Shown piece after piece: positions 183 to 21,431 of a stretch of 24,000 bases of DNA. The stretch is taken from contig QMZC01000008.1 of the NCBI GenBank assembly GCA_003662995.1, positions 16,197-40,196 of the forward strand. Reading direction: 5' to 3'. The notes beneath the pieces were generated by a model. That model was not told the DNA's origin. It searched no databases and saw nothing but the letters and a program-made list of their open reading frames with translations. Every line of letters starts with the position of its first letter. Position 1 is the stretch's first letter. The translations under genes were made by a program, and so were the position numbers. The DNA comes from Archaeoglobales archaeon. GTDB lineage: Archaea; Halobacteriota; Archaeoglobi; Archaeoglobales; Archaeoglobaceae.

Positions 183-2048
183 TTATGCCTCTAAGGCAGT
201 TATCTCCCTCAACTTGCCTAATAATCTGTTTTTTCCGTCTCCTCCAACCAAAGCGTGCTCTAAAACCTCATTAATTTTTGAAACGGGTATTATTTCAATC
301 TTACCTTCATGTTCTGCATCTAGCAACACGTCATCTATGTTATCCTTTGGAACTATGACCTTCTTTATCCCAGCTTGGATTGCTGCTTCTATCTTCTGCG
401 TAACACCGCCAACTGGCAACACCTCACCCTTAACTGACAAACTTCCAGTCATTGCAACAGATTGATCAACTGGTATGTTCTCCATTGCTGAAATCACGGC
501 AGTTGCTATACTTATGCTTGCAGAATCCCCTTCAACACCCTCGTAAGTTCCAACAAATTGGATGTGTACGTCTTTATTCGATATGTCCTTTCCTGTAAAC
601 TTCTTGATTATTGCAGATACGTTCATAACAGCTTCCCTAGCAATTTCCTGCAGTCTACCAGTTGCTATAACCCTCCCCTCCTCCTTACTCAACGCTGGTG
701 TTATCTCAGCTATAATCGGCAATACCACTCCCGCAGACTCGCCAATGACAGCCAGTCCATTGACTCTACCAACCTCCTCACCCTCATTGACAAACAGCCT
801 GTAGTCTTTTCTCCTCTCAATGTACTTGTCAGCCAATTGCTCTTCAATCGTTTTCGCAATCTTTTTAGCCTTGAGTATGTGTTCAACCCTAACCACATCT
901 GCCCCCTCAGCCCTTGCAATGTCTCCAGCGGTTCTTATCAATCCACCAAGCTCTCTTAATCTTAAAGTTAGATGATTTCTCCTTCCAGCTCTTCTTTTAG
1001 CCTCTTTAATTATCTCAGCAACCGCATACTTATCTAGATGTGGTATCTTGCCATCCCTAACGACTTCCTGCGCAACAAATCTAACAAATTTCCTCCTGTT
1101 CTCAAGTGTATCTTCAATTGTGTCATTCATGTAAACTTCATAGCCGTAACCTTCAATTCTGCTTCGTAATGCAGGATGCATGCCCATCAACGCATCCAAA
1201 TTCCCTGCAGCAACCAAAATGAAATCGCATGGGACAGGATCAGTCCTAACCATCGCTCCACTACTCCTTTCAGATTGCCCAGTAATTGGAAACTTCTTTT
1301 CTTGGAGGGCTGTCAAAATCTTTTGTTGCGATTCTATTGTTAGCGTATTAATTTCATCAATGTACAAAACACCCCTGTGCGCTCTATGAATCGCTCCAGC
1401 CTCAACTCTCTCATGCGCTGGCGTCTCTAAACCACCAGACTGAAACGGGTCATGCCTAACATCACCAAACAGAGCTCCTGCGTGAGCGCCGGTAGCATCT
1501 TCAAACGGGGCTGTCTCTTTATTTTCATTGCTAACCAACAATTTTGGAATATTTCTTTCCTCTTTTGGCAGCATGTATCTGGCAACTAAAAACAGCAAAG
1601 CTCCAGCAATTATTCCCCACAAAAGTTGTCTTTCAATCAGTATAGCATAACCAACAATGAGGAAGATTAACATAAATAAAAAGAAGTTCCTTGCCTGCGT
1701 TTTCTTCATCGCCTCCTGCTTGTAAGCCTCAACTATTTCCTTACCTTTACCGGCAGGAACCGTCCTAATTTTTGGATGGTTCGGGTCTTCATGATTTGGA
1801 TAAACCAAGATGTCTTCTAGCTCCTCTTTTGGCAATAGCTCAGCCATCGCCTTGGCAAGCATGGATTTGCCTGTACCAGGAGAGCCGATTAACATGACGT
1901 GTCTTTTTTGTACGGCAGCCTTTTTTATAGCTTCAACAGCATGATCCTGTCCAATAACCTGATCAATTAATCTTTTCGGGACTTCTATTTCTTGAGTTGT
2001 CTCAAATTCCAAACCTCCAAGCAGATCATTAATTTTTTCTGAGTCCAT
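183..2048 (-). CDS. lonB: Archaeal membrane-bound ATP-dependent Lon protease (LonB type)
   Basis: 621-aa ORF. Walker A is GSPGTGKS and Walker B-like is VLYIDEI. Two hydrophobic helices (FFLFMLIFLIVGYAILI, LLWGIIAGALLFLVARYML) are inserted inside the AAA+ module. The C-terminal Lon proteolytic domain has the Ser motif GDSASIS and the Lys in GVTQKIEAA. Confidence 0.95.
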   Translation of the reverse strand: MDSEKINDLLGGLEFETTQEIEVPKRLIDQVIGQDHAVEAIKKAAVQKRHVMLIGSPGTGKSMLAKAMAELLPKEELEDILVYPNHEDPNHPKIRTVPAGKGKEIVEAYKQEAMKKTQARNFFLFMLIFLIVGYAILIERQLLWGIIAGALLFLVARYMLPKEERNIPKLLVSNENKETAPFEDATGAHAGALFGDVRHDPFQSGGLETPAHERVEAGAIHRAHRGVLYIDEINTLTIESQQKILTALQEKKFPITGQSERSSGAMVRTDPVPCDFILVAAGNLDALMGMHPALRSRIEGYGYEVYMNDTIEDTLENRRKFVRFVAQEVVRDGKIPHLDKYAVAEIIKEAKRRAGRRNHLTLRLRELGGLIRTAGDIARAEGADVVRVEHILKAKKIAKTIEEQLADKYIERRKDYRLFVNEGEEVGRVNGLAVIGESAGVVLPIIAEITPALSKEEGRVIATGRLQEIAREAVMNVSAIIKKFTGKDISNKDVHIQFVGTYEGVEGDSASISIATAVISAMENIPVDQSVAMTGSLSVKGEVLPVGGVTQKIEAAIQAGIKKVIVPKDNIDDVLLDAEHEGKIEIIPVSKINEVLEHALVGGDGKNRLLGKLREITALEA

Positions 2049-2138
2049 TGGTGAAATTATTAGCTTAAAATTTAAATAAATTATGCAGGTACTTTAAATT
2101 CAAAATTTTAATTAAAAATAGGCATTAATCTGTACCAA

Positions 2139-2504
2139 TCAATCCACTGTTGCTCTCCTTAAAAACCACACCTCCATTTTTATGCACCTGTTGGTCTCGC
2201 AGTCCACCTCTAGACAGCCAAAGCATGGTGGTAATCCAGCTAAGTCCTCCATTTTCTCCATTATCGCCATCAGGTTGAGCTCTTCCTCTTCCTCCTCTTC
2301 CTCCTCTGCTCCTGCTGGAACTATCTTAAAAGTTTTTACACCATCGACAACAACCTCTACTCTCCTAATCAAACCTTCTTTCTCCAGCTTTCTGAGAATT
2401 CTTGAGCATTTACTGCTATCTATCTTCAACTCCTTCCATAAATCCTTTTGTAAAACAGATCCCTTTTGCTCTAGTATTTGCAGAATCTCCTCTCTCGTAT
2501 CCAT
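2139..2504 (-). CDS. Winged-helix DNA-binding protein with a poly-Glu linker and a C-terminal CX2CX4CX4C motif
   Basis: 121-aa ORF. The N-terminal wHTH-like block is EEILQILEQKGSVLQKDLWKELKIDSSKCSRILRKLEKEGLIRRVEVVVDGVKTFKIV. It is followed by a run of nine Glu and then PPCFGCLEVDCETNRC. The gene starts 6 nt after the Sm gene stop, so co-transcription is likely. Confidence 0.7.
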   Translation of the reverse strand: MDTREEILQILEQKGSVLQKDLWKELKIDSSKCSRILRKLEKEGLIRRVEVVVDGVKTFKIVPAGAEEEEEEEEELNLMAIMEKMEDLAGLPPCFGCLEVDCETNRCIKMEVWFLRRATVD

Positions 2505-2510
2505 CTGAGA

Positions 2511-2735
2511 TTAGACCTCGTAAGGTTGAATCAGAATGACATTGTTACCTCTCAGTACTATATTGCCCAAGTTCCTAAGCTTCTCCCCGTTTTTGTATTC
2601 CATTGCATTGCTCAAAAACAGGTTCATGTAGTCGTCTACTCCCTCCAGTTTACCAACTAAGTCGCTTTCTTCTCCCTTCATCTCAACCCTGATCGTCTTG
2701 CCGATTAACGACTTCACCATCTGATTCGGAAGCAT
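2511..2735 (-). CDS. Archaeal Sm-like (LSm/SmAP) RNA-binding protein
   Basis: Sm1/Sm2 motifs are present: IGKTIRVEMKGEESDLVGKLEGVDDYMNLFLSNA ... IVLRGNNVILIQP. The ORF track starts at GTG 2762. An ATG at 2735 is preceded by AGGTGAT with a 4-nt spacer and gives a ~74-aa protein starting MLPNQMVKS, a typical size for archaeal Sm proteins. Confidence 0.9.
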   Translation of the reverse strand: MLPNQMVKSLIGKTIRVEMKGEESDLVGKLEGVDDYMNLFLSNAMEYKNGEKLRNLGNIVLRGNNVILIQPYEV

Positions 2736-2880
2736 CTCTATCACCTTTTTCTTTTCTACCACTTTACTATATTTTCAAAATATTTTAGGGTTATGGTGTT
2801 TTGATTGCTGTTTTACACCACACAAGATGGGTAGAGAATTAGCAAAAACCGTATATATATCTTTCCTCTTTGCTTTCCTA

Positions 2881-3786
2881 ATGATCGTCGTAACTGGAGG
2901 GGCAGGTTTTATTGGTAGTTATGTAGTTGATGAATTAATTTCGAAAGGTTTTGAAGTCGTTGTGTTTGACAATCTGTCTTCAGGAAATCCCGATTATGTC
3001 AACGCTAAGGCTAAGCTTTACAAGATTGATTTGGTAAAGGATGAGCTTAAGCTTAAAGATGTTGAGGAAGTCTGGCACATAGCTGCAAATCCAGATGTAA
3101 GAGTTGGTTTGGAAAACCCAGATGAAATATATAATAACAACATACTTGCAACTTATAGAGTTTTGGAGGCGATGAGGAAGTACGATGTGGATAGGATAGT
3201 TTTTACATCTACATCAACCGTTTATGGAGAGGCTGAGCAAATTCCTACACCTGAAGAGAACCCAATGCATCCCATATCTCTGTATGGGGCTTCAAAGCTT
3301 GCATGTGAAGCTTTGATTGAATCGTACTGTCACACCTTTGACATAAAAAGCTGGATATACAGATTCGCAAACGTAATTGGTAAGCGGAGCAACCATGGTG
3401 TAATCTACGATTTTATAATGAAGTTAAAGAAAAATCCTAATGAGCTGGAGATTTTGGGAGATGGAGAGCAAAACAAGTCCTATATTTACATCTCAGATTG
3501 CATTGATGCGATGTTTTGTGGATTAAAAACAAAAGACAAGGTTAACGTCTTCAATATAGGTAGCGAAGATCAGGTTAAAGTAAAGAGGATAGCAGAAATT
3601 GTTAGCGAAGAGATGGGCTTAAAACCAAAATTTAAGTTTACCGGTGGGAAGAGAGGTTGGAAAGGGGATGTACCTTTAATGCTTTTATCAATTGAAAAGC
3701 TGAAATCAATTGGCTGGAAACCAAAGTACAATTCGGAGGAGGCTGTTAGATTAGCTGTTAGGGATTTGTTAGAGGATTTAAATTAA
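2881..3786 (+). CDS. NAD-dependent nucleoside-diphosphate-sugar epimerase/dehydratase (UDP-glucose 4-epimerase-like, SDR family)
   Basis: Rossmann motif VTGGAGFIGS at the N-terminus and catalytic YGASK (YxxxK). The ORF track starts at 2827, but the 18 extra residues are hydrophobic and atypical. A TATATATA box at 2853-2860 sits about 25 nt before ATG 2881 (MIVVTGGAGFIGS), which fits a leaderless start. Confidence 0.85.
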   Translation: MIVVTGGAGFIGSYVVDELISKGFEVVVFDNLSSGNPDYVNAKAKLYKIDLVKDELKLKDVEEVWHIAANPDVRVGLENPDEIYNNNILATYRVLEAMRKYDVDRIVFTSTSTVYGEAEQIPTPEENPMHPISLYGASKLACEALIESYCHTFDIKSWIYRFANVIGKRSNHGVIYDFIMKLKKNPNELEILGDGEQNKSYIYISDCIDAMFCGLKTKDKVNVFNIGSEDQVKVKRIAEIVSEEMGLKPKFKFTGGKRGWKGDVPLMLLSIEKLKSIGWKPKYNSEEAVRLAVRDLLEDLN

Positions 3787-3791
3787 ATACA

Positions 3792-4766
3792 ATGATTCAC
3801 ATAATACTCCATCTTTCAAAGAAGCTTGTTTCACTGATCAAGGAAAAGAAGGTGTTGCTCTATGCAGGTATATACATCCTTTGCTTGTGGACAGTCGCGA
3901 CAATTGTCTTCCACTACATTGAGAAAATCTCCATCTTCGACTCTCTTTACTGGGCTGTTACAACAACCACAACCGTCGGTTATGGAGACATCACACCACA
4001 AACTCCCATTGGCAAGGTTTTTTCGATGATAGTCATGGTAAGCGGGATTGGTGTTTTGGGTTTGTTTTTGGCATCAATTGCAGACATTTTAATAGAGCAA
4101 AGCTTAAGAAGAAGGCGTGTAAGGGCGATTATGGAAAACCACGTCGTGGTGCTGGGTTGGGATAAAAAGGTTGAGACTGCTGTTAAAGAGCTACTTTCTG
4201 AAGGTAAAGAAGTTGTTGTAATCGCTGAAGTTGATGACATTCCTTTGGAACGTTCAAACCTCGTTTTTATTAAAGGTGATCCCACAGATGAGGAGAATTT
4301 AAAGAGAGCTAATGCTGATAAGGCTACTTTTTCTTTAATTTCAGGAAAGAACGATACTGAAACTCTGTTGGCGGCGATAGCGATTAAAAAGATGAATAAA
4401 AAAATTCAGATCACGTGTGTTGTTTCCGATCCGAAGGTGACGAAGGCGTTGGAAAGCGTAGGTGTTGATCAGGTTTTGTCGGTCGATGAATTCTTTGGAT
4501 TGGCTTTATCAAGATCAATATTCGTTCCCAAGATTTCTGTTTTCTTGAATGAGATTATGGCAACCAAGGGCATGGACGTGTATCAACAAAAAGTTCCTGA
4601 GTTTGAAGGCTTGTATTTCTTTGATTTGATGAAGGAGTTGAAGGAGAGGAACAATGCTATATTGCTGGGAATTGTTAGAGATGGACACGTGATTTTAAAT
4701 CCTAAAAAAGATGAGAAAATTGGCAGGGATGATGAAATACTCTACATTGCGGAGAGTCAGATTTGA
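3792..4766 (+). CDS. Two-TM K+ channel with C-terminal RCK/TrkA-N gating domain (MthK-like)
   Basis: Selectivity filter TTVGYGD lies between two hydrophobic helices. The C-terminal RCK domain starts at HVVVLGWDKKVETAVKELLSEGKEVVVIAE and includes KGDPTDEENLKRANADKA. Confidence 0.9.
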   Translation: MIHIILHLSKKLVSLIKEKKVLLYAGIYILCLWTVATIVFHYIEKISIFDSLYWAVTTTTTVGYGDITPQTPIGKVFSMIVMVSGIGVLGLFLASIADILIEQSLRRRRVRAIMENHVVVLGWDKKVETAVKELLSEGKEVVVIAEVDDIPLERSNLVFIKGDPTDEENLKRANADKATFSLISGKNDTETLLAAIAIKKMNKKIQITCVVSDPKVTKALESVGVDQVLSVDEFFGLALSRSIFVPKISVFLNEIMATKGMDVYQQKVPEFEGLYFFDLMKELKERNNAILLGIVRDGHVILNPKKDEKIGRDDEILYIAESQI

Positions 4767-4844
4767 ATATTCAAAAACAGTTAGTCAAAAGATTTAAATA
4801 ATATCCTACCAAAAATTATGAAATCAAATTTGGAGGTGTGAGAT

Positions 4845-5048
4845 TTGGAAAGTTTCGTTAGAGAACCCCCAGTAAGTGTGGGGGACATTAGAACCGTGAA
4901 AATAGAGGCTATAGGTAGTGGGGGAGACGGAATTGCTAAGATAAGTGGTTTTGTAATCTTCGTACCCAACGCAAAGTTGAATGATGAGGTTACGATTAGG
5001 GTTACTAAAGTCTTGAGAAAGTACGCTTTTGCCGAGTTGGTAGAATAA
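4845..5048 (+). CDS. Stand-alone TRAM-domain RNA-binding protein
   Basis: 67-aa ORF with a TTG start 6 nt after GGAGGTG (4832-4838). TATA TTTAAATA lies at 4793-4800. The sequence VGDIRTVKIEAIGSGGDGIAKISGFVIFVPNAKLNDEVTIRVTKV matches the TRAM beta-barrel pattern. Confidence 0.8.
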   Translation: MESFVREPPVSVGDIRTVKIEAIGSGGDGIAKISGFVIFVPNAKLNDEVTIRVTKVLRKYAFAELVE

Positions 5049-11365: not shown

Positions 11366-11551
11366 TATAGAAAAATGGTTTGACAAAATTTAATTTTTTT
11401 GTTAAAATTTTCTAGACTTGGATTTGAAGTCCTCTCAAATTGGCTTAGGATGCAAGGAATTGTAGTGTTTAGACAATTTATAGATGAGTCTTTCAAATTT
11501 CATCGAGTATTTCAACGTATTTTAGAACTCTCATTTTTGCAATTACACTTT

Positions 11552-11576
11552 TCCAATTTCAAATAAATAATTTCAA
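11552..11576 (+). promoter_or_regulatory. Direct repeat TCCAATTTCA-N7-AATTTCAA upstream of the flaB1 promoter (candidate activator site)
   Basis: AATTTCA occurs at 11555-11561 and 11569-11575, a 14-bp period. The same pair with the same 14-bp period occurs upstream of the third archaellin gene (20403-20409, 20417-20423). Looser copies lie at 11496-11502 and 11508-11514. Confidence 0.45.
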
Positions 11577-11675: not shown

Positions 11676-12314
11676 ATGAAGTGGAAAATAAGAAAAGATG
11701 AAAAAGGTTTTACTGGCTTGGAAGCAGCAATCGTACTAATAGCTTTTGTAGTGGTGGCAGCGGTCTTCAGCTATGTCATGCTGGGAGCAGGTTTCTTCAC
11801 AACGCAGAAGAGCAAGAAAGTTGTGGACACTGGTGTCAAACAAGCTAGCAGCTCATTAACGCTGGATGGGCAGTATATCTATCTGAACTGCAGTAGCGAT
11901 GCCAATGGCGAAACGGGTTCAAATGGTAAAGTTGGAAAAATTTACTTCTATGTCACACAAACTGCTGGTGGAACACCAGTAGATCTGAATAAAACATCCA
12001 TATCAATAACTACCGAGAACGGATACAAACAGCTGTTCTATAATGAGAGTGCCTGTACAGTTGGTAGTGGTGGCGATAATTGTCCATGGTGGTATGACGA
12101 CACAGTTGGTGATGGCGACAACGTTGTTGAACCAAATGAGAAATACAAGATCATAATCAATGTTAGCAATACAGATTATGACTGGACTTGGAGTGGGATA
12201 GGAGATTTGAATCCTAACGACGAAATCACAATTGAAGTACGCCCACCAATTGGTGCACCACTGACGATAACAAAAACGCTACCACCGAGCTTCACGAATT
12301 TAACGTATATCTGA
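11676..12314 (+). CDS. flaB1: Archaellin (archaeal flagellin) 1, class III signal peptide
   Basis: Leader MKWKIRKDEKG followed by FTGLEAAIVLIAFVVVAAVFSYVMLGAGFFTTQKSK. Five N-x-S/T sequons. First gene of the fla operon. Confidence 0.9.
   Translation: MKWKIRKDEKGFTGLEAAIVLIAFVVVAAVFSYVMLGAGFFTTQKSKKVVDTGVKQASSSLTLDGQYIYLNCSSDANGETGSNGKVGKIYFYVTQTAGGTPVDLNKTSISITTENGYKQLFYNESACTVGSGGDNCPWWYDDTVGDGDNVVEPNEKYKIIINVSNTDYDWTWSGIGDLNPNDEITIEVRPPIGAPLTITKTLPPSFTNLTYI
11693..11743 (+). repeat. 51-nt tract identical to 12342-12392 (5' ends of flaB1 and flaB2)
   Basis: AAAAGATGAAAAAGGTTTTACTGGCTTGGAAGCAGCAATCGTACTAATAGC is present in both genes, including all synonymous positions. Confidence 0.9.
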
Positions 12315-12324
12315 GGTGATGCCC

Positions 12325-12936
12325 ATGGTGTGGAAAATAGTAAAAGATGAAAAAGGTTTTACTGGCTTGGAAGCAGCAATCGTACTAATAGCGTTCGTCA
12401 CAGTTGCAGCAGTCTTCAGCTACGTATTGCTAGGAGCAGGTTTCTTTGCAACTCAGAAGGGTCAGGAAACTGTACATACTGGTGTCAAACAGGCTACTAG
12501 CAGCATGGAGCTTGTTGGATCAATAGTTGCTACAGGAAATATTTCTGCAAACAAAATTGAGAATGTTACGTTCACAATTCAGCTTGCAGCGGGTGGACAG
12601 TCGATTGACCTGAACAAGACAGTCATAACAGTTCTTGTTCCTTCAGACGGTGATTTCGTAGAGTTGACGTACAACAACAGCACGGATCTAGATAAGAGCT
12701 CAGACTATTATGTCAACTGGGTTTACAGTTTGCAGGGTGATAATCCTGACGACTACCTTGAAGAGTTTGAGAAGGCCGAAATTACCGTATATTTGGGGTG
12801 CACTGATGGTGCAGGCTTAAATATCGGCCCGAATGATGACTTCATAATTGAAGTTAAACCTCCAATCGGTGCAACGTATCCAATTGAGCTCAAGGCTCCA
12901 CCGGCCATCGACGATATAATGGTGCTGCTGAAGTAA
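12325..12936 (+). CDS. flaB2: Archaellin 2, class III signal peptide
   Basis: MVWKIVKDEKG followed by FTGLEAAIVLIAFVTVAAVFSYVLLGAGFFATQKGQ. The track start is GTG 12316. ATG 12325 is preferred by homology with the flaB1 leader and by GAGGTGAT (12313-12320) 4 nt upstream. Confidence 0.9.
   Translation: MVWKIVKDEKGFTGLEAAIVLIAFVTVAAVFSYVLLGAGFFATQKGQETVHTGVKQATSSMELVGSIVATGNISANKIENVTFTIQLAAGGQSIDLNKTVITVLVPSDGDFVELTYNNSTDLDKSSDYYVNWVYSLQGDNPDDYLEEFEKAEITVYLGCTDGAGLNIGPNDDFIIEVKPPIGATYPIELKAPPAIDDIMVLLK
12342..12392 (+). repeat. Second copy of the 51-nt identical tract (see 11693-11743)
   Basis: Exact identity read directly from the sequence. Confidence 0.9.
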
Positions 12937-15531: not shown

Positions 15532-17385
15532 ATGGCAACTGCTGCTGCCGAGAAGATCGACTTCAGTATGAAGCCCAAGGGGCTTAAGGCAGGAGTAGTT
15601 GCCAATTTCCCCTTCACACCGAAAAGGTATGATGATCACGATCACACAAATCTGAAAACATGTGGAATTTACAAACTACTTCCAAAACCGATGAAAAAGG
15701 AAGTGGAGAAGAATTTACATTTGTTAGAATACCTGCACATTCTACCTTTGGATAAAATTGGAATTCCGAAGTACTTTCCCAAATTAGAGAAAAAGCATGG
15801 AGAAATGGAGAATCCGAACCTGATATATCCTGCGAGTGAACAAATTTACATTCATATCTACCCCGACAAAAACGATGTCAGAAATTTCTACATCCCCATA
15901 GAGCCGACGCTGCTCACAGGTGTGGAGGAATTGGTTAAAGAGGTTGAGATCAGACTGGTTGATTATCTCACAGACATAGACTTTGACCCTTCAGATTCAG
16001 AGGAGAAGGAGAAAATCTTGAAAAAGGCGTTGAGGGAGATATGCGTAATTACAAATGGCAGGAAAGTTGATGAATTCATCAACGACAATGGTGGGTTTTT
16101 AAAGCTGTTTGTTAAAAGCAAGGACAATGGAAATGGCATGAATGACAAAATATACGTTACAAGGGAGCAGTTTAAAGCTTTAGAGTACGCGATAATAAGG
16201 GATAAGGTTGGTTTAGGGGTTCTTGAGCCTTATATTAGGGATAAGTACATTGAAGATATTACTTGCAATGGGCTCGGTCCAATATTCATTGAACACAAGG
16301 TTTTCAAGGGATTGAAGAGTGTAATTGAGTTTAGAGAAGAAGAGACGCTTAACAAATTCATAATAAGGCTTGCAGAGAGGATAGGAAAGCCCATAACGTA
16401 TAAAGACCCCATTGTCGATGCAACGTTGCCTGATGGGTCGAGAATTAACATAGTTTATGGAACGGACATAAGCAGAAATGGCAGTAATTTCACCATAAGA
16501 AAGTTCAATGAGACGCCATTCAGTGTTTTGCAGATTATTGAGAGTGGAACGATGGACTACATGATTGCTGGCTACTTGTGGCTTTTAATTTCTGAGGGTA
16601 TGAGTGGATTTATATGCGGTGAAACGGCAAGCGGTAAAACAACCACACTCAACGCCATTACCGCATTCATCTCTCCTGATGCAAAGGTTGTTTCAATTGA
16701 AGATACTCCCGAATTGCAAGTTCCACACAAAAACTGGACGAGAGAGGTTACAAGAGGTAGCACTAGGGGTGGCGCAATCGGAGAGGGGAGCGGTTCAGAC
16801 GTTACAATGTTTGATCTGCTGAAAGCGGCTTTGAGGCAGAGACCGAACTATATACTGGTTGGTGAGATCAGAGGTGTTGAGGGCAACATAGCATTTCAGG
16901 CTATGCAAACTGGACACCCTGTCATGTCCACATTCCATGCAGCCACTGTTGAGAAGCTTATACAGAGACTTACCGCTGAACCGATAAATGTTCCAAAGAC
17001 GTACATTGACAACTTAAACTTCGTTTTAATCCAAAGTGCGGTTAGGAGACCCGATGGAAAGCTTGTAAGGAGGGTCTTGAGTGTTAATGAGATCGTTGGC
17101 TACAATCCGCAAAAAGGTGGTGTATCGTTCATTGAAGCGTTCTCGTGGGATCCTGTTACGGACACGCATGTTTTCAATGGTTATGGTACCTCTTACTTGT
17201 TGGAACAAAAAATTGCGACGAGGCTTGGCATTCCAGCAAGTAAGAAGAGAGTGATTTACGAAGAGGTTGAAAAAAGGGCAAAGATCCTGCAAAAATTACA
17301 TGAAGAAGGGGTCACGAATTTCTACGATTTATTCCACACTTTGGCGAAGATTAGAAAGAGTGGATTGCTCAAAATACAGTTTTAG
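15532..17385 (+). CDS. flaI: Archaellum motor ATPase FlaI (ArlI), type II/IV secretion ATPase superfamily
   Basis: Walker A GETASGKTTTLNA, Walker B region NYILVGEIRG, His box TGHPVMSTFHA, and N-terminal IYPxxxxxxYxIxEP-type motifs. Confidence 0.95.
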   Translation: MATAAAEKIDFSMKPKGLKAGVVANFPFTPKRYDDHDHTNLKTCGIYKLLPKPMKKEVEKNLHLLEYLHILPLDKIGIPKYFPKLEKKHGEMENPNLIYPASEQIYIHIYPDKNDVRNFYIPIEPTLLTGVEELVKEVEIRLVDYLTDIDFDPSDSEEKEKILKKALREICVITNGRKVDEFINDNGGFLKLFVKSKDNGNGMNDKIYVTREQFKALEYAIIRDKVGLGVLEPYIRDKYIEDITCNGLGPIFIEHKVFKGLKSVIEFREEETLNKFIIRLAERIGKPITYKDPIVDATLPDGSRINIVYGTDISRNGSNFTIRKFNETPFSVLQIIESGTMDYMIAGYLWLLISEGMSGFICGETASGKTTTLNAITAFISPDAKVVSIEDTPELQVPHKNWTREVTRGSTRGGAIGEGSGSDVTMFDLLKAALRQRPNYILVGEIRGVEGNIAFQAMQTGHPVMSTFHAATVEKLIQRLTAEPINVPKTYIDNLNFVLIQSAVRRPDGKLVRRVLSVNEIVGYNPQKGGVSFIEAFSWDPVTDTHVFNGYGTSYLLEQKIATRLGIPASKKRVIYEEVEKRAKILQKLHEEGVTNFYDLFHTLAKIRKSGLLKIQF

Positions 17386-17393
17386 GTGATTTC

Positions 17394-19025
17394 ATGGAAG
17401 TAGCAACGATAAAAAAGTTTAGATTCGGAAGGAAAAAAGAAGAAAGCAAGGGCCTATTCCAAGGTATCCTTGAGAGAATAAAGACTCTAAAAGAAGAACT
17501 CTACATGGATAATGATTTACTTTTTATACTTACTTACATGGCTTCCATTTCTACAGCTCAAATAAGCAGAGACAAAATCTTTGAAAAAACTTCTGAAAAA
17601 AGAGAGTATGCGCCAAGCAAGTACTTCAGTAAAATTAAAGACTTGGCGCAGAAATGGCACTATGATTATGCTACAGCCTGTGAATTGATAGCAAGGAAGG
17701 TCAAGCATGAAAGGGTGAAAAATTTGCTAAATCGATTTTCGAATGCGATTTCAGCAGGAGAACCAGATAGGGAGTTTCTAGAAAAGGAATGGAAAGTATT
17801 CAAGACTGTAAGAAAGGATGAATTCGAGAGGTGTTTGGAATCTTTAAGAAAGTGGACTGATGCCTATACGGCGTTAACGGTTTCAACATCCTTGGTTTCA
17901 ATAGTAATTCTGTTATCGGTAATAATATACAAAGTTGGCGATCCTGCCCAGACTTTGTACACAACTGCGTTTTTCATACTTTTAATATCGTTTATGGGTG
18001 TGGCGTTGCTTTACAAATCTGTTCCAAAGGATGTAAAAACCCATAATTTGAGAATAAAGTCAAGAGAACAGAGAATTGTTGCAAAATGGATGCCAGTCTC
18101 ACTCATAATTTCATTACTGCTTATTTTTTTGATGAGTGTAATCCCGACGTTTTTCAATCCGGAAATGTTTGTTTTCAACGGCATAGATTTAAAAGGGTTT
18201 GGGTTAATCTCGGCAGGTTTGGTAATGCTTCCGGTTGGATTTGTTGGGAGAAACGATGATATAAAGATAAGTAAACGTGATGAAAGTTTTACCGTATTTA
18301 TACGAAACTTAGGGGCGATAGTGAGTGGTGCAGGTTTGTCAATTGCTGAAGCTCTGACAAAGATAGATCAGAAGAACTTGGGAGAGCTTAAAGATTTGGC
18401 GTATCAACTTTATAAGCGATTGGCTATGGGATTAGATCCAAAGCTCTGCTGGGAGAAGTTTATCGGTGAGAGCGGCAGTTATTTGATACACAAGTTAACG
18501 AGCATATTTGTTGATGCTGTTGATTTGGGTGGAGATGCGGACGTTATAGGCGACTTGGTCAGTTCTTCAAATTTAGAGATGGTCTTGCTAAGAATGAAAA
18601 GGGATTTGATTTCTTCGGGTTTCATAAGTTTAGTAATACCACTGCACTTAGCTATGGTATCTCTGTTGCTGTTCATATCCCAAATATTGACAATTTTTAC
18701 CAAGCTGATTACAACTCTGTTCTCGCAATACAGTATATCGGGTGAGAAATTGAAAAACGTTCCGGGTATCGTTGGTGGCATGAACATAGGCATCTTCAGT
18801 GGCATCCCATTGGACTTGCTGTACCAATACACTCTCGTTGTTGTGTTGATCATAACTACGGCAAACATTTTTGCAGCAAAGATAGTAAAGGGAGGGGCAA
18901 CCTATATGATATTCTACTATGGTGCAATACTCTGCATCCTATCTGGAATTGCGATGATCGTTATTCCGCCAGCAGTGAGCATGGCTTTCACGTTTCCATC
19001 GTTTGTGGAAGGAGGAGGTGGTTAA
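17394..19025 (+). CDS. flaJ: Archaellum polytopic membrane platform protein FlaJ (ArlJ), GspF/TadC-like
   Basis: 543 aa. The two cytoplasmic domains (e.g. LNRFSNAISAGEPDREFLEKEWKVF) alternate with multiple TM helices. AGGTGA lies upstream of the ATG. The gene follows flaI directly. Confidence 0.85.
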   Translation: MEVATIKKFRFGRKKEESKGLFQGILERIKTLKEELYMDNDLLFILTYMASISTAQISRDKIFEKTSEKREYAPSKYFSKIKDLAQKWHYDYATACELIARKVKHERVKNLLNRFSNAISAGEPDREFLEKEWKVFKTVRKDEFERCLESLRKWTDAYTALTVSTSLVSIVILLSVIIYKVGDPAQTLYTTAFFILLISFMGVALLYKSVPKDVKTHNLRIKSREQRIVAKWMPVSLIISLLLIFLMSVIPTFFNPEMFVFNGIDLKGFGLISAGLVMLPVGFVGRNDDIKISKRDESFTVFIRNLGAIVSGAGLSIAEALTKIDQKNLGELKDLAYQLYKRLAMGLDPKLCWEKFIGESGSYLIHKLTSIFVDAVDLGGDADVIGDLVSSSNLEMVLLRMKRDLISSGFISLVIPLHLAMVSLLLFISQILTIFTKLITTLFSQYSISGEKLKNVPGIVGGMNIGIFSGIPLDLLYQYTLVVVLIITTANIFAAKIVKGGATYMIFYYGAILCILSGIAMIVIPPAVSMAFTFPSFVEGGGG

Positions 19026-19027
19026 AT

Positions 19028-19879
19028 TTGGATGTTAGTATAATTGTGGGATTGATAATGGCTGGAGGAGCAATTGGTGGTGCAACCTTGTATGACAAAC
19101 TGAAGAATGAGGGCAAAATAAAGGTCGATTTCAGCAGTAAACTTGAAAAGATAAACAAAAAATTTGAAAGAATAAATAAGTTGGATAAATTAAAGATAAA
19201 GAAAGGCGAAAGTTCTGAGGACAAATTTGGTAAGAGTATAAGCATAGAGAAACTCAAAAATAAAATGGGGTTGTTCAGTAAAATTTCTGATAAGCTCAGC
19301 AACATCTCTTTAAAAAAACCAACTTTCAATCTGAGTAAAGCCGCTAGGGAAGATAAACTAAAAGAGATCGACGAGAAACTGAAAGAAGTTGTGGAAGAAA
19401 CTCCAAAACCGGTGGAGAAAGTTGTAGAACTTGATTCGCAAGAAGTTGATAAAGTTCTTGAAGAAAAGAAAGAGGAATTTGCAATTGAAGATAATCTGAT
19501 CGACGAGATGGAGACCGCTACGTCATTGGAGCAAGATTCGATTTCTGAAATGGACATAAAAGAGGAGGATTTGGAGGGATTAAACGCAGACATAACAATA
19601 GACACCGATGAGCTGGAAGCTGAATTCGGATTTGATGTGGATGAACGACAGGAGGCCGAGATGATTGCAGAAACGGATACTGCTGAAGAGATCGAGTTCG
19701 ATGAAAAAGACGCTTTATTAGCTTCTTTAGAAAAAGAAATAACTGTTAAGAAAGAAGAGAAATTGGATTTACTAAGAGATTTGAGAAATGAGAACTTAGA
19801 CGTTAAGGAGATTGAAAGAGAGCTTAAAGAAGTGTTGGAGATACTCAATCAATTTAAGGGAAAGGTTGCAAAAGCTTGA
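19028..19879 (+). CDS. Uncharacterised N-terminally membrane-anchored protein with a basic then a strongly acidic coiled-coil region, translationally coupled to flaJ
   Basis: TTG start 7 nt after GGAGGAGGTG (19011-19020), which lies inside the last flaJ codons, and 2 nt after the flaJ stop. TM/glycine-zipper VSIIVGLIMAGGAIGGATLY. A K-rich segment spans about residues 23-110, then an E/D-rich segment runs to the end. I recognise no family. Confidence 0.7.
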   Translation: MDVSIIVGLIMAGGAIGGATLYDKLKNEGKIKVDFSSKLEKINKKFERINKLDKLKIKKGESSEDKFGKSISIEKLKNKMGLFSKISDKLSNISLKKPTFNLSKAAREDKLKEIDEKLKEVVEETPKPVEKVVELDSQEVDKVLEEKKEEFAIEDNLIDEMETATSLEQDSISEMDIKEEDLEGLNADITIDTDELEAEFGFDVDERQEAEMIAETDTAEEIEFDEKDALLASLEKEITVKKEEKLDLLRDLRNENLDVKEIERELKEVLEILNQFKGKVAKA

Positions 19880-19944
19880 AATTGCAAAATTGAAATTTCA
19901 TTTTTAAAGGAAATTTATTTATATTTGGATTAATAATTTAAAAT

Positions 19945-20009
19945 GGGGGTGATAGCAAGGGCTCACGAAGTGGGAGCTGGAAATTGCTGCTAACTTTTAA
20001 CAGCTTTTT
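19945..20009 (+). ncRNA. Candidate small transcription unit: TATA-like box, GC-rich ~40-nt core, hairpin plus T5 (or a 16-codon micro-ORF)
   Basis: TTTATATT at 19918-19925. A GC-rich island GGGGGTGATAGCAAGGGCTCACGAAGTGGGAGCTGG (about 66% GC) sits in a spacer that looks very AT-rich by eye. A hairpin GCTGCTAA-CTT-TTAACAGC (19985-20003, one C-A mismatch) is followed by TTTTT at 20004-20008. ATG 19943 opens MGVIARAHEVGAGNCC-stop. No known RNA family recognised. Confidence 0.2.
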
Positions 20010-20015
20010 ACAATT

Positions 20016-20306
20016 TTATTTAAATCTTAAAGCAAGAAGTTCGTCAAGTTCGTCCAGCAAGTTTTTACCCTTCGATGTAATATAAAAATACTCGTTATTC
20101 TTGCCGATTAATTCTAATTTTTTTAAGTTTTCTATCTGCCTATGAATTATCAATGGCTTTAATCTCGTTTTGATATACAATTGGGAAAATCTCAATTCCT
20201 CCTCTTTTAGGCTCATTAAAATTTTTATTGCACTTTCACTCCTTATAGCCCTATCTGTTTGTGCAGTTTGTGCCCTTTCCGATTCAGAAGGGCTTTGAAC
20301 GGGCAT
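20016..20306 (-). CDS. Small winged-helix DNA-binding protein, divergent from the third archaellin gene
   Basis: 96 aa. A Ser/Gln/Ala/Arg-rich N-terminal tail is followed by AIKILMSLKEEELRFSQLYIKTRLKPLIIHRQIENLKKLELIGKNNEYFYITSKGKNLL (helix-turn-helix plus beta wing pattern). Confidence 0.65.
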   Translation of the reverse strand: MPVQSPSESERAQTAQTDRAIRSESAIKILMSLKEEELRFSQLYIKTRLKPLIIHRQIENLKKLELIGKNNEYFYITSKGKNLLDELDELLALRFK

Positions 20307-20399
20307 GGATAATTATTTGGTGTTGTCATTTATTAATTTTTTTATTCGTTTTTGAGTTTGTTGATATTTGGGACATTTAGGGAAAAATAGATAGGTTAA

Positions 20400-20424
20400 T
20401 CCAATTTCAGTTTAGAAATTTCAA
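20400..20424 (+). promoter_or_regulatory. Direct repeat TCCAATTTCA-N7-AATTTCAA upstream of the third archaellin promoter
   Basis: It has the same 10-mer, the same 8-mer and the same 14-bp period as at 11552-11576. GTAATTA (20429-20435) lies exactly 25 nt before TTATATAT, as it does in the flaB1 promoter (11588 versus 11613). Confidence 0.45.
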
Positions 20425-20446
20425 TACTGTAATTAAATACTCATAA

Positions 20447-20462
20447 GTAAAAATTATATATA
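20447..20462 (+). promoter_or_regulatory. BRE/TATA box of the third archaellin gene (probably leaderless mRNA)
   Basis: GTAAAAATTATATATA. The core TTATATAT at 20454-20461 ends 22 nt before ATG 20484. There is no Shine-Dalgarno sequence in between. Confidence 0.55.
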
Positions 20463-20483
20463 GCTTTATTTTAAGTATATGAC

Positions 20484-21431
20484 ATGCCAAATTCTGATGG
20501 TGCTTTCACAGGACTCGAAGCATCCATAGTTTTAATAGCGTTTGTTGTAGTTGGAGCAGTTTTTGGATACACCATACTTGGCTCGGGATTCTTTACCGCA
20601 CAAAAATCAAAGAGTATTGTAGTCAATGGCGTCAAACAAGCATCAGCTTCACTTGTTTTAGATGGGCAGTATATATACCTCGCATGTGACCCAACAGGTT
20701 CCAGTGGTTGTGTCAATACCATATATTTTTATGTGACACAATCAGCAGGCGGAGCAAGTGTGGATTTAGAAAAGGCATCAATTGCTGTTATAACCAAAGA
20801 TGGCTATGAACAGAAACCCTACACAAGTGGTGTAACTCCCATTATTGCAGGCAATGTTACTAACAACATCACACTAAACACACAGGGGCTATACTTAATT
20901 GGCAGTACAGCATATCCTCCGTCGGGCTGTGAACCTCTTGTAGTGTACATTACAGCATTCTTGAGAAATACCAAAAACACATCGCTTACTGGCGATATAG
21001 CCTTGTACATTAACAGTAGTAAAAAGACCGTTTCAAGCATAGAAGGTACAAGCTCAAATGTTACCGCAACGATTGTTGATGGAAAAGTTAGAGTTGCAGT
21101 AGAAGCTGAGAAGGATGGGTGGGTTACATTCAGTTACATACTTACAGTCCCTGGATGTTATGCTGTGAGTGCTGGGAATTCCACACATCGATACATAGAT
21201 GACCAAGTATGCGTTGGTAATTGGTGGTGGTATCAGCCAATCATTGGGGACAGTGATGGAATTGTAGAGGCGAATGAAAAATACAAAATAGAGATCAACG
21301 TGCAGTGCTGGGACGTAGGGACTATTACACCAGACGAAGTTTTAACAATTGAATTGAGACCTGCAGTCGGTGCACCACTCGTAATAACTAAGCAATTACC
21401 GCCAAGCTTTTTAAAGTTGACCTACGTGTAA
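20484..21431 (+). CDS. flaB3: Archaellin paralogue with a ~120-residue internal insertion and an atypical short leader
   Basis: MPNSDGA followed by FTGLEASIVLIAFVVVGAVFGYTILGSGFFTAQKSK. The core blocks are shared with FlaB1: LDGQYIYL, IYFYVTQSAGG, WWY, VEANEKYKIEINV, TIELRPAVGAPLVITKQLPPSFLKLTYV. The extra block spans about residues 113-240. Confidence 0.85.
   Translation: MPNSDGAFTGLEASIVLIAFVVVGAVFGYTILGSGFFTAQKSKSIVVNGVKQASASLVLDGQYIYLACDPTGSSGCVNTIYFYVTQSAGGASVDLEKASIAVITKDGYEQKPYTSGVTPIIAGNVTNNITLNTQGLYLIGSTAYPPSGCEPLVVYITAFLRNTKNTSLTGDIALYINSSKKTVSSIEGTSSNVTATIVDGKVRVAVEAEKDGWVTFSYILTVPGCYAVSAGNSTHRYIDDQVCVGNWWWYQPIIGDSDGIVEANEKYKIEINVQCWDVGTITPDEVLTIELRPAVGAPLVITKQLPPSFLKLTYV

Follow-up and report, generated by a model that had tools for sequence, protein, structure and literature searches.

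The window discussed here, that is, the whole 24,000-nucleotide stretch of contig QMZC01000008.1 that was analysed, holds the complete archaellum (arl/fla) cluster of an Archaeoglobales metagenome-assembled genome and, beyond the end of that cluster, a gene for a further and larger archaellin, which is the subject of this text (Table 1). The distance from the end of arlJ (19025) to the start of this gene is 1.46 kb and, as the original prediction made from the DNA had it, two genes (19028-19879 on the plus strand and 20016-20306 on the minus strand) set it apart from the operon. Its product is 100% identical to RLI79928.1, which is recorded as "hypothetical protein DRP05_02435" of an Archaeoglobales archaeon. 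The gene order around it is the same in an independent Joint Genome Institute (JGI) contig. In a related genome (L001), the same winged helix-turn-helix and PAS-domain genes are neighbours and the archaellin between them is absent, which means that the gene is a lineage-specific addition at that spot. Horizontal transfer of the whole gene finds no support in its composition, given a GC content of 41.7% as against 42.3% for flaB1 and 39.3% for the window.

Table 1. Features of the archaellum region and of the large archaellin gene, in window coordinates (BRE, transcription factor B recognition element; pLDDT, predicted local distance difference test).
Feature	Position	Strand	Remarks
AATTTCA pair	2052-2072	-	one mismatch; just upstream of the Lon gene
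AATTTCA copies in the flaB1 promoter	11541-11575	+	three copies, the third (11541) with one mismatch
flaB1	11676-12314	+	canonical archaellin, 212 aa; heads the arl operon
flaB2	12316-12936	+	canonical archaellin, 206 aa; at the head of the arl operon
arlC/D/E-like gene, then arlF, arlG, arlH	after flaB2		
arlI	15532-17385		
arlJ	17394-19025		end of the arl gene run
Acidic 283-aa gene	19028-19879	+	no Pfam match
AATTTCA pair	19877-19900	both	partly palindromic; in the gap after the gene at 19028-19879
Winged-helix regulator gene	20016-20306	-	HTH_45, ArsR-like; divergently oriented
Upstream element AATTTCA-N7-AATTTCA	20403-20423	+	common to the flaB1 promoter (11555-11575)
A-rich BRE plus TATA-like box GTAAAAATTATATATAG	20447-20463	+	centre ~26 nt before the ATG
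In-frame TAA stop	20472-20474	+	four codons upstream of the ATG; excludes a longer leader
Large archaellin coding sequence	20484-21431	+	complete, 315 aa plus stop
Atypical class III leader MPNSDGA	20484-20504	+	Ala at -1, Gly at -2, Asp at -3; no Lys/Arg
D0, N-terminal hydrophobic helix of the mature protein (FTGLEASIVLIAFVVVGAVFGYTILGSGFF...)	20505-20639	+	Gly at +3 and Glu at +5 kept; helix 10-36
D1, first half of the archaellin beta-sandwich core	20640-20813	+	residues 53-110, ending in GYEQ; pLDDT 60-86
Inserted outer domain (D2-like)	20814-21224	+	residues 111-247; all-beta, six N-x-S/T sequons, C149/C225; low-confidence linkers at both ends
Part of the insert with homologues in large secreted Archaeoglobaceae proteins (their first domain)	20835-21215	+	residues 118-244; P0089 and L010 open reading frame 203-3727
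D1, second half of the core	21225-21428	+	WWY ... NEKYKIEINV ... TIELRPAVGAPLVITKQLPPSFLKLTYV; pLDDT 68-87
PAS-rich methyl-accepting chemotaxis gene	start ~21619		runs beyond the window

The product is an archaellin. The Pfam family PF01917 (Arch_flagellin) matches it with 99.2 bits (cut-off 29.5) over residues 7-302 and, in one stretch, over positions 1-161 of the 162 positions of the model; NCBIfam also gives a flagellin match, which is sub-threshold only. In a full-length AlphaFold2 model, residues 10-36 form a helix and the core strands have pLDDT values of 60-87, and when this model was compared with the PDB by Foldseek, the best 17 matches were all solved archaellins (E 9.5e-11 to 6.6e-5). 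The family profile, the fold (an N-terminal hydrophobic helix and a beta-sandwich) and the association with arlC/D/E-F-G-H-I-J genes are all found together. The core motifs are conserved in blocks with 88 relatives, and the prediction was right in that the N-terminus of an archaellin and the FlaB1-like flanks of the globular part are retained. It was also right about the cysteines, of which a recount gives six (C68, C76, C149, C225, C243 and C275), against three in FlaB1 and one in FlaB2.

Between Q110 and W248, the protein has 137 residues where FlaB1 has 18 and where an A. fulgidus-type FlaB1 has 14. These had been predicted to form a single block of about 120 residues between GYEQ110 and W248, whereas an alignment might have shown the extra residues to be scattered. 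In the MAFFT alignment, it is the 18 residues of FlaB1 that are scattered over the gap; the extra residues of the large archaellin still make up one contiguous block between conserved anchors and, from about residue 118 to residue 244, they align as one domain, and are homologous as a unit, to a domain of a foreign protein (see below). The other claims made about this block hold as well. All six N-x-S/T sequons (N124, N128, N165, N177, N192 and N232) lie within it and none lies in the core, the chance of which is 0.007 when the whole protein is considered and 0.02 when only the part outside the N-terminal helix is considered. Moreover, the alignment confirms that the sequons of FlaB1 have all been lost, NCS having become ACD, NKT EKA, NVS NVQ and NLT KLT.

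The block is one autonomous all-beta domain. Modelled on its own with AlphaFold2, it consists of about ten strands, with a pLDDT of 70-85 over block residues 30-120, a predicted template modelling score of 0.62 and, at either end, a segment of low confidence. Searches of Pfam, of the PDB by Foldseek and of the PDB sequences by profile did not place it in any named beta-sandwich family: the Pfam matches are sub-threshold only (aBig_2 with 14.4 bits and Filamin with 14.8 bits), and the best match in the profile search (E 0.29) is spurious. The short variable loop of FlaB1 (window 12040-12090, residues 123-138; NESACTVGSGGDNCPWWY) holds one sequon and a pair of cysteines, and a Cys pair is also found in the variable loop of the A. 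fulgidus-type FlaB1 orthologue (DSCTPGTDCP); this loop of FlaB1 is probably disulphide-stapled and surface-exposed.

Where the domain may come from is suggested by its relatives. When 1.84 billion representative proteins were searched exhaustively by HMMER with nothing but the block as query, the one match besides its own protein was P0089 (E 1.3e-4 over the whole library). P0089 (L003, 8001-11447), from an Archaeoglobaceae genome, is a protein of 1148 residues that starts with a Sec signal peptide, contains dozens of sequons and has a CARDB domain in its C-terminal part and a tail that matches an EF-hand at sub-threshold level only; its neighbours are large genes with NosD/beta-helix and peptidase C25 domains. 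A pairwise comparison gives 36% identity to the block over 143 residues. A metagenome scan provided a second secreted relative, of 1174 residues (L010, 203-3727), which is 39% identical to the block. Beyond these two sequon-rich secreted proteins, no relative of the block was found in the 1.84 billion proteins, in the GTDB species-representative genomes or in the JGI metagenome scan.

In both secreted proteins, the matching region is the first domain after the signal peptide. When the three proteins are aligned together, the homology begins at the end of the signal peptide (TPVMA, which resembles TPIIA) and extends to the TVTV/VCV strand, past which the secreted proteins go on and the archaellin returns to its WWY core. 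These limits mean that the block corresponds to exactly one domain. The position of the sequon N232 is conserved in all three proteins. Capture of the domain by the archaellin would be the more economical direction, since the domain occurs in one archaellin lineage only, and this is the direction that we infer. The fusion appears to be old and maintained, since the insert has diverged to 36-39% identity with its relatives and yet is still a complete domain.

The secreted proteins themselves, of about 1150 residues (P0089 and the L010 protein), are extremely rich in sequons and have internal repeats of about 110 residues as well as the CARDB domain; both are encoded beside other large genes with NosD/beta-helix and peptidase C25 domains. 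The last ~70 residues of the L010 protein (…DNVPD.LEQIV.KYYP.FDWRKETPTK…) are common to a neighbouring secreted protein of 342 residues (3822-4850). This observation suggests an anchoring or docking module. P0089 has its EF-hand/dockerin-like tail where the L010 proteins have this common C-terminal module.

The prediction described an insert in this one gene. The block is real, but such inserts are not special to this gene, since unrelated ones are found at the same loop in other Archaeoglobaceae archaellins. Indeed, 15 of these (289-371 aa; P0035/37/40/41/42/44/45/48/60/61, P0063/79/84 and P0082/83) carry inserts of 78-193 residues after GY.Q and before WWY. Their inserts belong to three classes, which can be aligned neither with each other nor with the block. 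Homology between the block and the other classes, or among those classes, was found neither by BLASTP all-against-all (best E 0.01 in a tiny database) nor by hhalign (probability 0.8%), and the idea that they are homologues was rejected at the available sensitivity. In a neighbour-joining tree based on the cores only, each of the three falls into a different clade, which implies at least four independent insertions or replacements at this loop.

The three loci of long archaellins examined are all inside arl operons. A class A archaellin (P0037, 316 aa) and a class B archaellin (P0063, 367 aa) are each encoded by the first archaellin gene, and another (P0044, 307 aa) by the third of four. Such positions, which are those of filament subunits, mean that the loop tolerates large domains. 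No description of these in-operon archaellins of 307-367 residues (L001 10001-10924, L002 10001-10951 and L012 7953-9056) was found in the literature searched. They are like the archaellin studied here in belonging to the FlaB1-type family and in having the same insertion loop, sequon-rich inserts and sequon-poor cores. They are unlike it in having basic leaders that end in KG or RG, less divergent cores and, at the three loci examined, a location within the operon.

In all the long archaellins, the sequon density is 0.02-0.07 per residue in the insert and 0-0.022 in the core, as compared with 0.028 in the short FlaB1. Such a move of sequons from the core to the insert would be expected if the insert is a new solvent-exposed layer. 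This family-wide shift agrees with the finding that the N-glycans of Methanococcus archaellins are carried by a "hypervariable middle region" (PMC4336324).

Expression of the large archaellin could be under the same control as that of the archaellum. The gene has the TATA box of its own that had been predicted (Table 1), there is no Shine-Dalgarno sequence in its upstream region, and its mRNA is probably leaderless, again as predicted. The counterpart in the flaB1 promoter, GTAAAAAATTTTATATATC, is followed by a 5' untranslated region of ~55 nt with a strong Shine-Dalgarno sequence, GGAGAGGTGGTGG. In both promoters, AATTTCA-N7-AATTTCA is placed ~30-34 nt upstream of the TATA box; the heptamer repeats with a period of 14 nt. 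With one mismatch at most, the entire window has six matches to this pattern where 0.03 would be expected. Repeats of a similar kind are found ahead of the arl operons in L001 and L002, and in all four promoters the register relative to the BRE/TATA is the same. L002 also has an exact copy of the pattern on its minus strand (18918-18938), upstream of an AF_1457-like gene of 52 codons.

In Methanococcus, EarA promoters have short activator sites just upstream of an A-rich, weak BRE. The arrangement in the promoters of flaB1 and of the large archaellin resembles this one. The adjacent winged-helix protein is HTH_45/ArsR-like. The repeat is a candidate activator site of the archaellum regulon, and this common element is the best evidence here that the large archaellin belongs to that regulon, with which it would be co-regulated.

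The reading that we consider probable, although far from assured, is that we have here a functional "large archaellin" (D0-D1-D2), accessory to the others and co-regulated with the archaellum, in which a captured, glycosylated outer domain decorates the filament. Archaellin identity and the common promoter element are part of its basis. An outer, glycosylated surface domain similar to the outer domains of flagellins had already been proposed in the original prediction, and to this proposal the single all-beta domain, its homology to secreted proteins, the family-wide sequon shift and the precedent of Haloarcula (see below) bring support that is indirect.

The mechanism could be as follows. A domain of ~125 residues, all-beta, would have been inserted in frame into a surface-exposed, hypervariable loop between GYEQ and WWY, and this insert would most likely have come from a gene of the same archaeal family that encodes a large, secreted and N-glycosylated protein, more precisely from the 5' end of that gene. 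The archaellin gene would be transcribed alone, probably into a leaderless mRNA, and the activator that turns on the archaellum genes would turn on this one too, because its promoter has the flaB1-type AATTTCA repeats and the A-rich BRE/TATA. A class III signal peptidase would cut the pre-protein between Ala7 and Phe8, and the ArlH/I/J machinery would assemble it, either together with FlaB1/FlaB2 into a mixed archaellum filament or into a filament of an alternative type. The D0 helix and the D1 core would make the filament contacts, while the insert would project outward on two flexible linkers and bear all the N-glycans. The insert might in this way alter the filament surface with respect to thickness, stiffness, adhesion or antigenicity.

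A series of points, which concern the steps of this mechanism, the insert, the leader and the core, weighs against this reading. Cleavage, assembly, outward orientation, glycan occupancy and co-regulation are all steps that we infer. In the full-length AlphaFold2 model, the pLDDT of the insert is 33-50, and this model was not used for the orientation of the domain. A Foldseek search of the PDB with the insert gave no significant match (best E 0.075, with generic beta-sandwich matches). The points about the leader and the core are more readily discussed together with the other explanations that they invite.

In the set of 89 family members, no other leader is as short as this one (7 aa), and no other is free of Lys/Arg. 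It was said to be atypical, and this is so as regards the absence of Lys/Arg and the exclusion of a longer leader (there is no alternative ATG, GTG or TTG start between the TAA at 20472-20474 and the ATG), but Ala at -1 with Gly at -2 is not unique. GA/FTGLE is also present in P0085 (MKRLQKDGA) and in P0088 (MPVREWEGA), and ERA/FTGLE is present in P0055. P0088, which has a net-negative leader, is encoded by the first of two tandem archaellin genes (L011 8001-9159, in a Logan assembly) and is a second natural case of a non-canonical archaellin leader. An assembly or frameshift artefact is ruled out as the cause of the odd leader, since the leader and the upstream DNA are identical in L005, L006 and L007 and the leader is the same in L008.

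Several class III features are found in MPNSDGA/FTGLEASIVLIAFVVV, namely a short leader, Ala at -1, Gly at +3, Glu at +5 and a hydrophobic domain right after the cut. Moreover, ArlK accepts leaders down to five residues (PMC10117864). Two others are missing, since the residue at -2 is an uncharged Gly, the residue at -3 is an acidic Asp, and the leader has no positive charge (Lys/Arg 0). Archaeal prepilin peptidases are described as accepting G, A or S at -1 and as having a critical need for a charged residue at -2 (PMC4371748), and in M. voltae ArlB2 changes to the Gly at -1 impair cleavage (PMC10117864).

A leader of this sort, along with an insert that derives from a secreted-protein family, could be explained if the protein were not an archaellum component but either an uncleaved, membrane-anchored surface protein that displays the beta domain or the substrate of another type IV filament system, of which Archaeoglobus has further uncharacterised loci (bioRxiv 10.64898/2026.04.22.720090). 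This explanation is rather improbable. D0 and D1 are clearly FlaB1-type, the gene lies close to arlJ and has an arl-type promoter element, and in P0088 a similar GA site and a net-negative leader are found at the head of a tandem archaellin pair. Cleavage of the large archaellin at A7/F8 seems, on balance, likely, and would be in keeping with the reading of a functional accessory archaellin.

The core, too, is unusual. Its D0-D1 identity to all FlaB1-type proteins is 62-65%, and the FlaB1 encoded nearby is 85-89% identical to its own orthologues. A recent duplication of flaB1 is ruled out by this level of identity to every FlaB1-type protein and by the long separate branch on which the protein lies in the core-only tree. 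Twelve of its substitutions are at columns that are at least 95% conserved, where leave-one-out controls have a median of 0 and a maximum of 8. Of the twelve, seven affect the D0 helix, each of them a conservative change (A/S/G, V/T, M/I); the changes at otherwise nearly invariant positions of D0 are A14S, A24G, S28G, V30T, M31I, A34S and T48N. No orthologue was found in any other species by protein searches that included the 1.84 billion representative proteins. The divergence of the core could equally reflect adaptation or relaxed constraint. In the reading preferred here, the protein is an old, fast-evolving FlaB1-type paralogue.

The long branch, the 12 changes at highly conserved columns, the failure to find orthologues and the atypical leader would also fit a decaying or functionless paralogue, which arose from a lineage-specific duplication and the insertion of a domain and is now drifting. 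However, the 948-nt open reading frame is free of frameshifts and premature stops in all the independent assemblies in which it is present. An identical protein, or a variant with one change (I238T) and the same leader, is encoded in independent assemblies from four samples, and the upstream DNA is identical wherever it is genuine genomic sequence. The D0 changes are all conservative swaps of small residues, and the core motifs, the Gly at +3, the Glu at +5 and the promoter with its arl upstream element are all retained. The insert, despite its distance from its relatives, is still a complete domain, as in an old and maintained fusion. Of the four population variants, three are synonymous and one is non-synonymous, which is far too few for a test based on the ratio of non-synonymous to synonymous rates. 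Intactness, the age of the fusion and the 3:1 variants argue weakly against decay, which is quite improbable.

It may be added that the flanks of L008 (1-75 and 1130-1201; ENA contig ERZ650341 NODE_80538) are Illumina Nextera adapter (…AGATGTGTATAAGAGACAG / CTGTCTCTTATACACATCTCCGAGCC…ATCTCGTATGCCGTCTTCTGCTTG) and are not genomic.

The same leader, unique among the 89, and the same seven conservative changes in the nearly invariant D0 helix might have another meaning if the protein were a specialised positional subunit (hook-like and cell-proximal, tip or cap, initiator or terminator) in which they set the rate of processing or the order of assembly. A promoter of its own, apart from flaB1/flaB2, would suit such a subunit, and there is a precedent in Methanococcus, where ArlB3 forms the hook region (PMC10117864). 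Against this, long-insert archaellins of relatives come first in their operons, as would fit bulk subunits, hooks are seldom observed outside the Methanococcales, and the sequence gives no sign of a terminal position. A specialised minor subunit with another processing requirement had been the alternative in the original prediction, and of the leader features only the lack of any Lys/Arg is still unusual. We regard a positional role as unlikely.

To return to the reading of an accessory archaellin with a captured outer domain, this can be taken further. The GYEQ/WWY loop would be a hot spot that has captured unrelated outer domains at least four times; in the present case, it would have taken the first domain of a surface glycoprotein (possibly with the tail of the signal peptide, TPVMA resembling TPIIA), and the product would form a thicker, glycan-sheathed filament of its own on the same motor under particular conditions, with the Lys/Arg-free leader imposing a non-canonical, regulated processing. 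We give this extended version only a small chance of being correct in full.

Other features of the region can be described briefly. The 283-aa protein encoded directly after arlJ, for which neither Pfam nor NCBIfam gives a match, carries a transmembrane segment at its N-terminus, and the long region that comes after it is rich in Lys and Glu and coiled-coil-like. L001, L002 and L012 have one or two unannotated genes at the matching position, and the 283-aa protein may be an uncharacterised archaellum accessory protein. The winged-helix gene also adjoins the arl clusters of the relatives L001 and L012. The 136-nt gap at 19880-20015, which is flanked by convergent genes, has in addition to its AATTTCA pair a TATA-like sequence, TTTATTTATATTT, at 19916-19928 and, ~20 nt beyond it, a GC-rich stretch, GGGGGTGATAGCAAGGGCTCACGAAGTGGGAGCTGG, that ends in T-runs. 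This gap could be the site of a small RNA or of a leaderless 16-codon open reading frame, MGVIARAHEVGAGNCC, from 19944. Rfam searches of the window and of the region 19800-20500 gave no match.

Large archaellins with outer domains are of interest because their first experimental structure dates only from 2026. The archaellin described here provides a concrete case in which a donor family can be named for the outer domain: within the same archaeal family, large secreted proteins with many sequons have this domain at their N-terminus. More generally, the Archaeoglobaceae appear to reuse one loop for unrelated domains, and each time the N-glycosylation sites shift from the core to what would be a new outer layer. 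The leader, which lacks Lys/Arg and has Gly at -2 followed by Ala at -1, offers a natural case on which the sequence rules of the archaeal class III signal peptidase can be tested, and with the AATTTCA repeat there is a candidate site for the activation of archaellum genes in the Archaeoglobi. The known picture of archaellum assembly is unchanged by these findings.

The closest comparison is with Haloarcula marismortui ArlA2 and ArlB, in which cryo-electron microscopy by Meshcheryakov et al. (Nat Commun 2026, PMC13357602) revealed a D2 domain that is inserted in D1 via two antiparallel linkers and that forms an outer sheath, which doubles the diameter of the filament. These authors reported that many archaea have large archaellins, diverse in their outer domains, usually beside archaellins of ~200 aa, and suggested that they are conditionally expressed and that the outer domains originate from non-archaellin proteins. 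The archaellin studied here has what defines such D0-D1-D2 proteins, namely an extra globular domain as one block within D1. It is like ArlA2 and ArlB in having a D0 helix, a D1 core and an additional beta-rich outer domain inside D1, and in coexisting, or alternating, with other archaellins. Where ArlA2 and ArlB have the two antiparallel linkers, it has low-confidence segments at both ends of the block. As in the case of arlA2, which is on a plasmid, the gene is away from the arl cluster.

The differences are also clear. The D2 of Haloarcula is a bi-lobed double beta-sandwich, whereas the outer domain here is a single one of ~125-137 aa; the Haloarcula proteins are without canonical sequons, whereas this outer domain holds all six. 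Unlike them, the present protein has a donor family that can be named and a leader with no Lys/Arg, it stands by itself behind an arl-type promoter, and it is known from its sequence alone. In a tblastn search of a plasmid collection, aimed at Haloarcula arlA2, no match and no sequence relationship to Haloarcula were detected, no Haloarcula sequence having been available for comparison.

A large central insertion for which a foreign origin was proposed is also present in Natrialba magadii ArlB3 (Serganova et al. 2002, as summarised in PMC10117864). In these respects, ArlB3 is like the large archaellin, although, as far as that summary goes, it belongs to a different lineage, its proposed donor was a bacterial flagellin, and it is co-transcribed in an archaellin operon. 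Bacterial flagellins, the outer domains of which are modular and of diverse origin according to the account in PMC11532411, resemble it in combining a conserved filament core with variable, often glycosylated surface domains (D2/D3 and beyond) inserted in the middle of the protein. They are nevertheless an unrelated family with a different fold and a different assembly, which relies on type III secretion rather than on a type IV-pilus-like assembly from the membrane. The large archaellin of this Archaeoglobales genome is, then, a further member of a group described only recently, the large archaellins that carry outer domains, and not a new kind of system.

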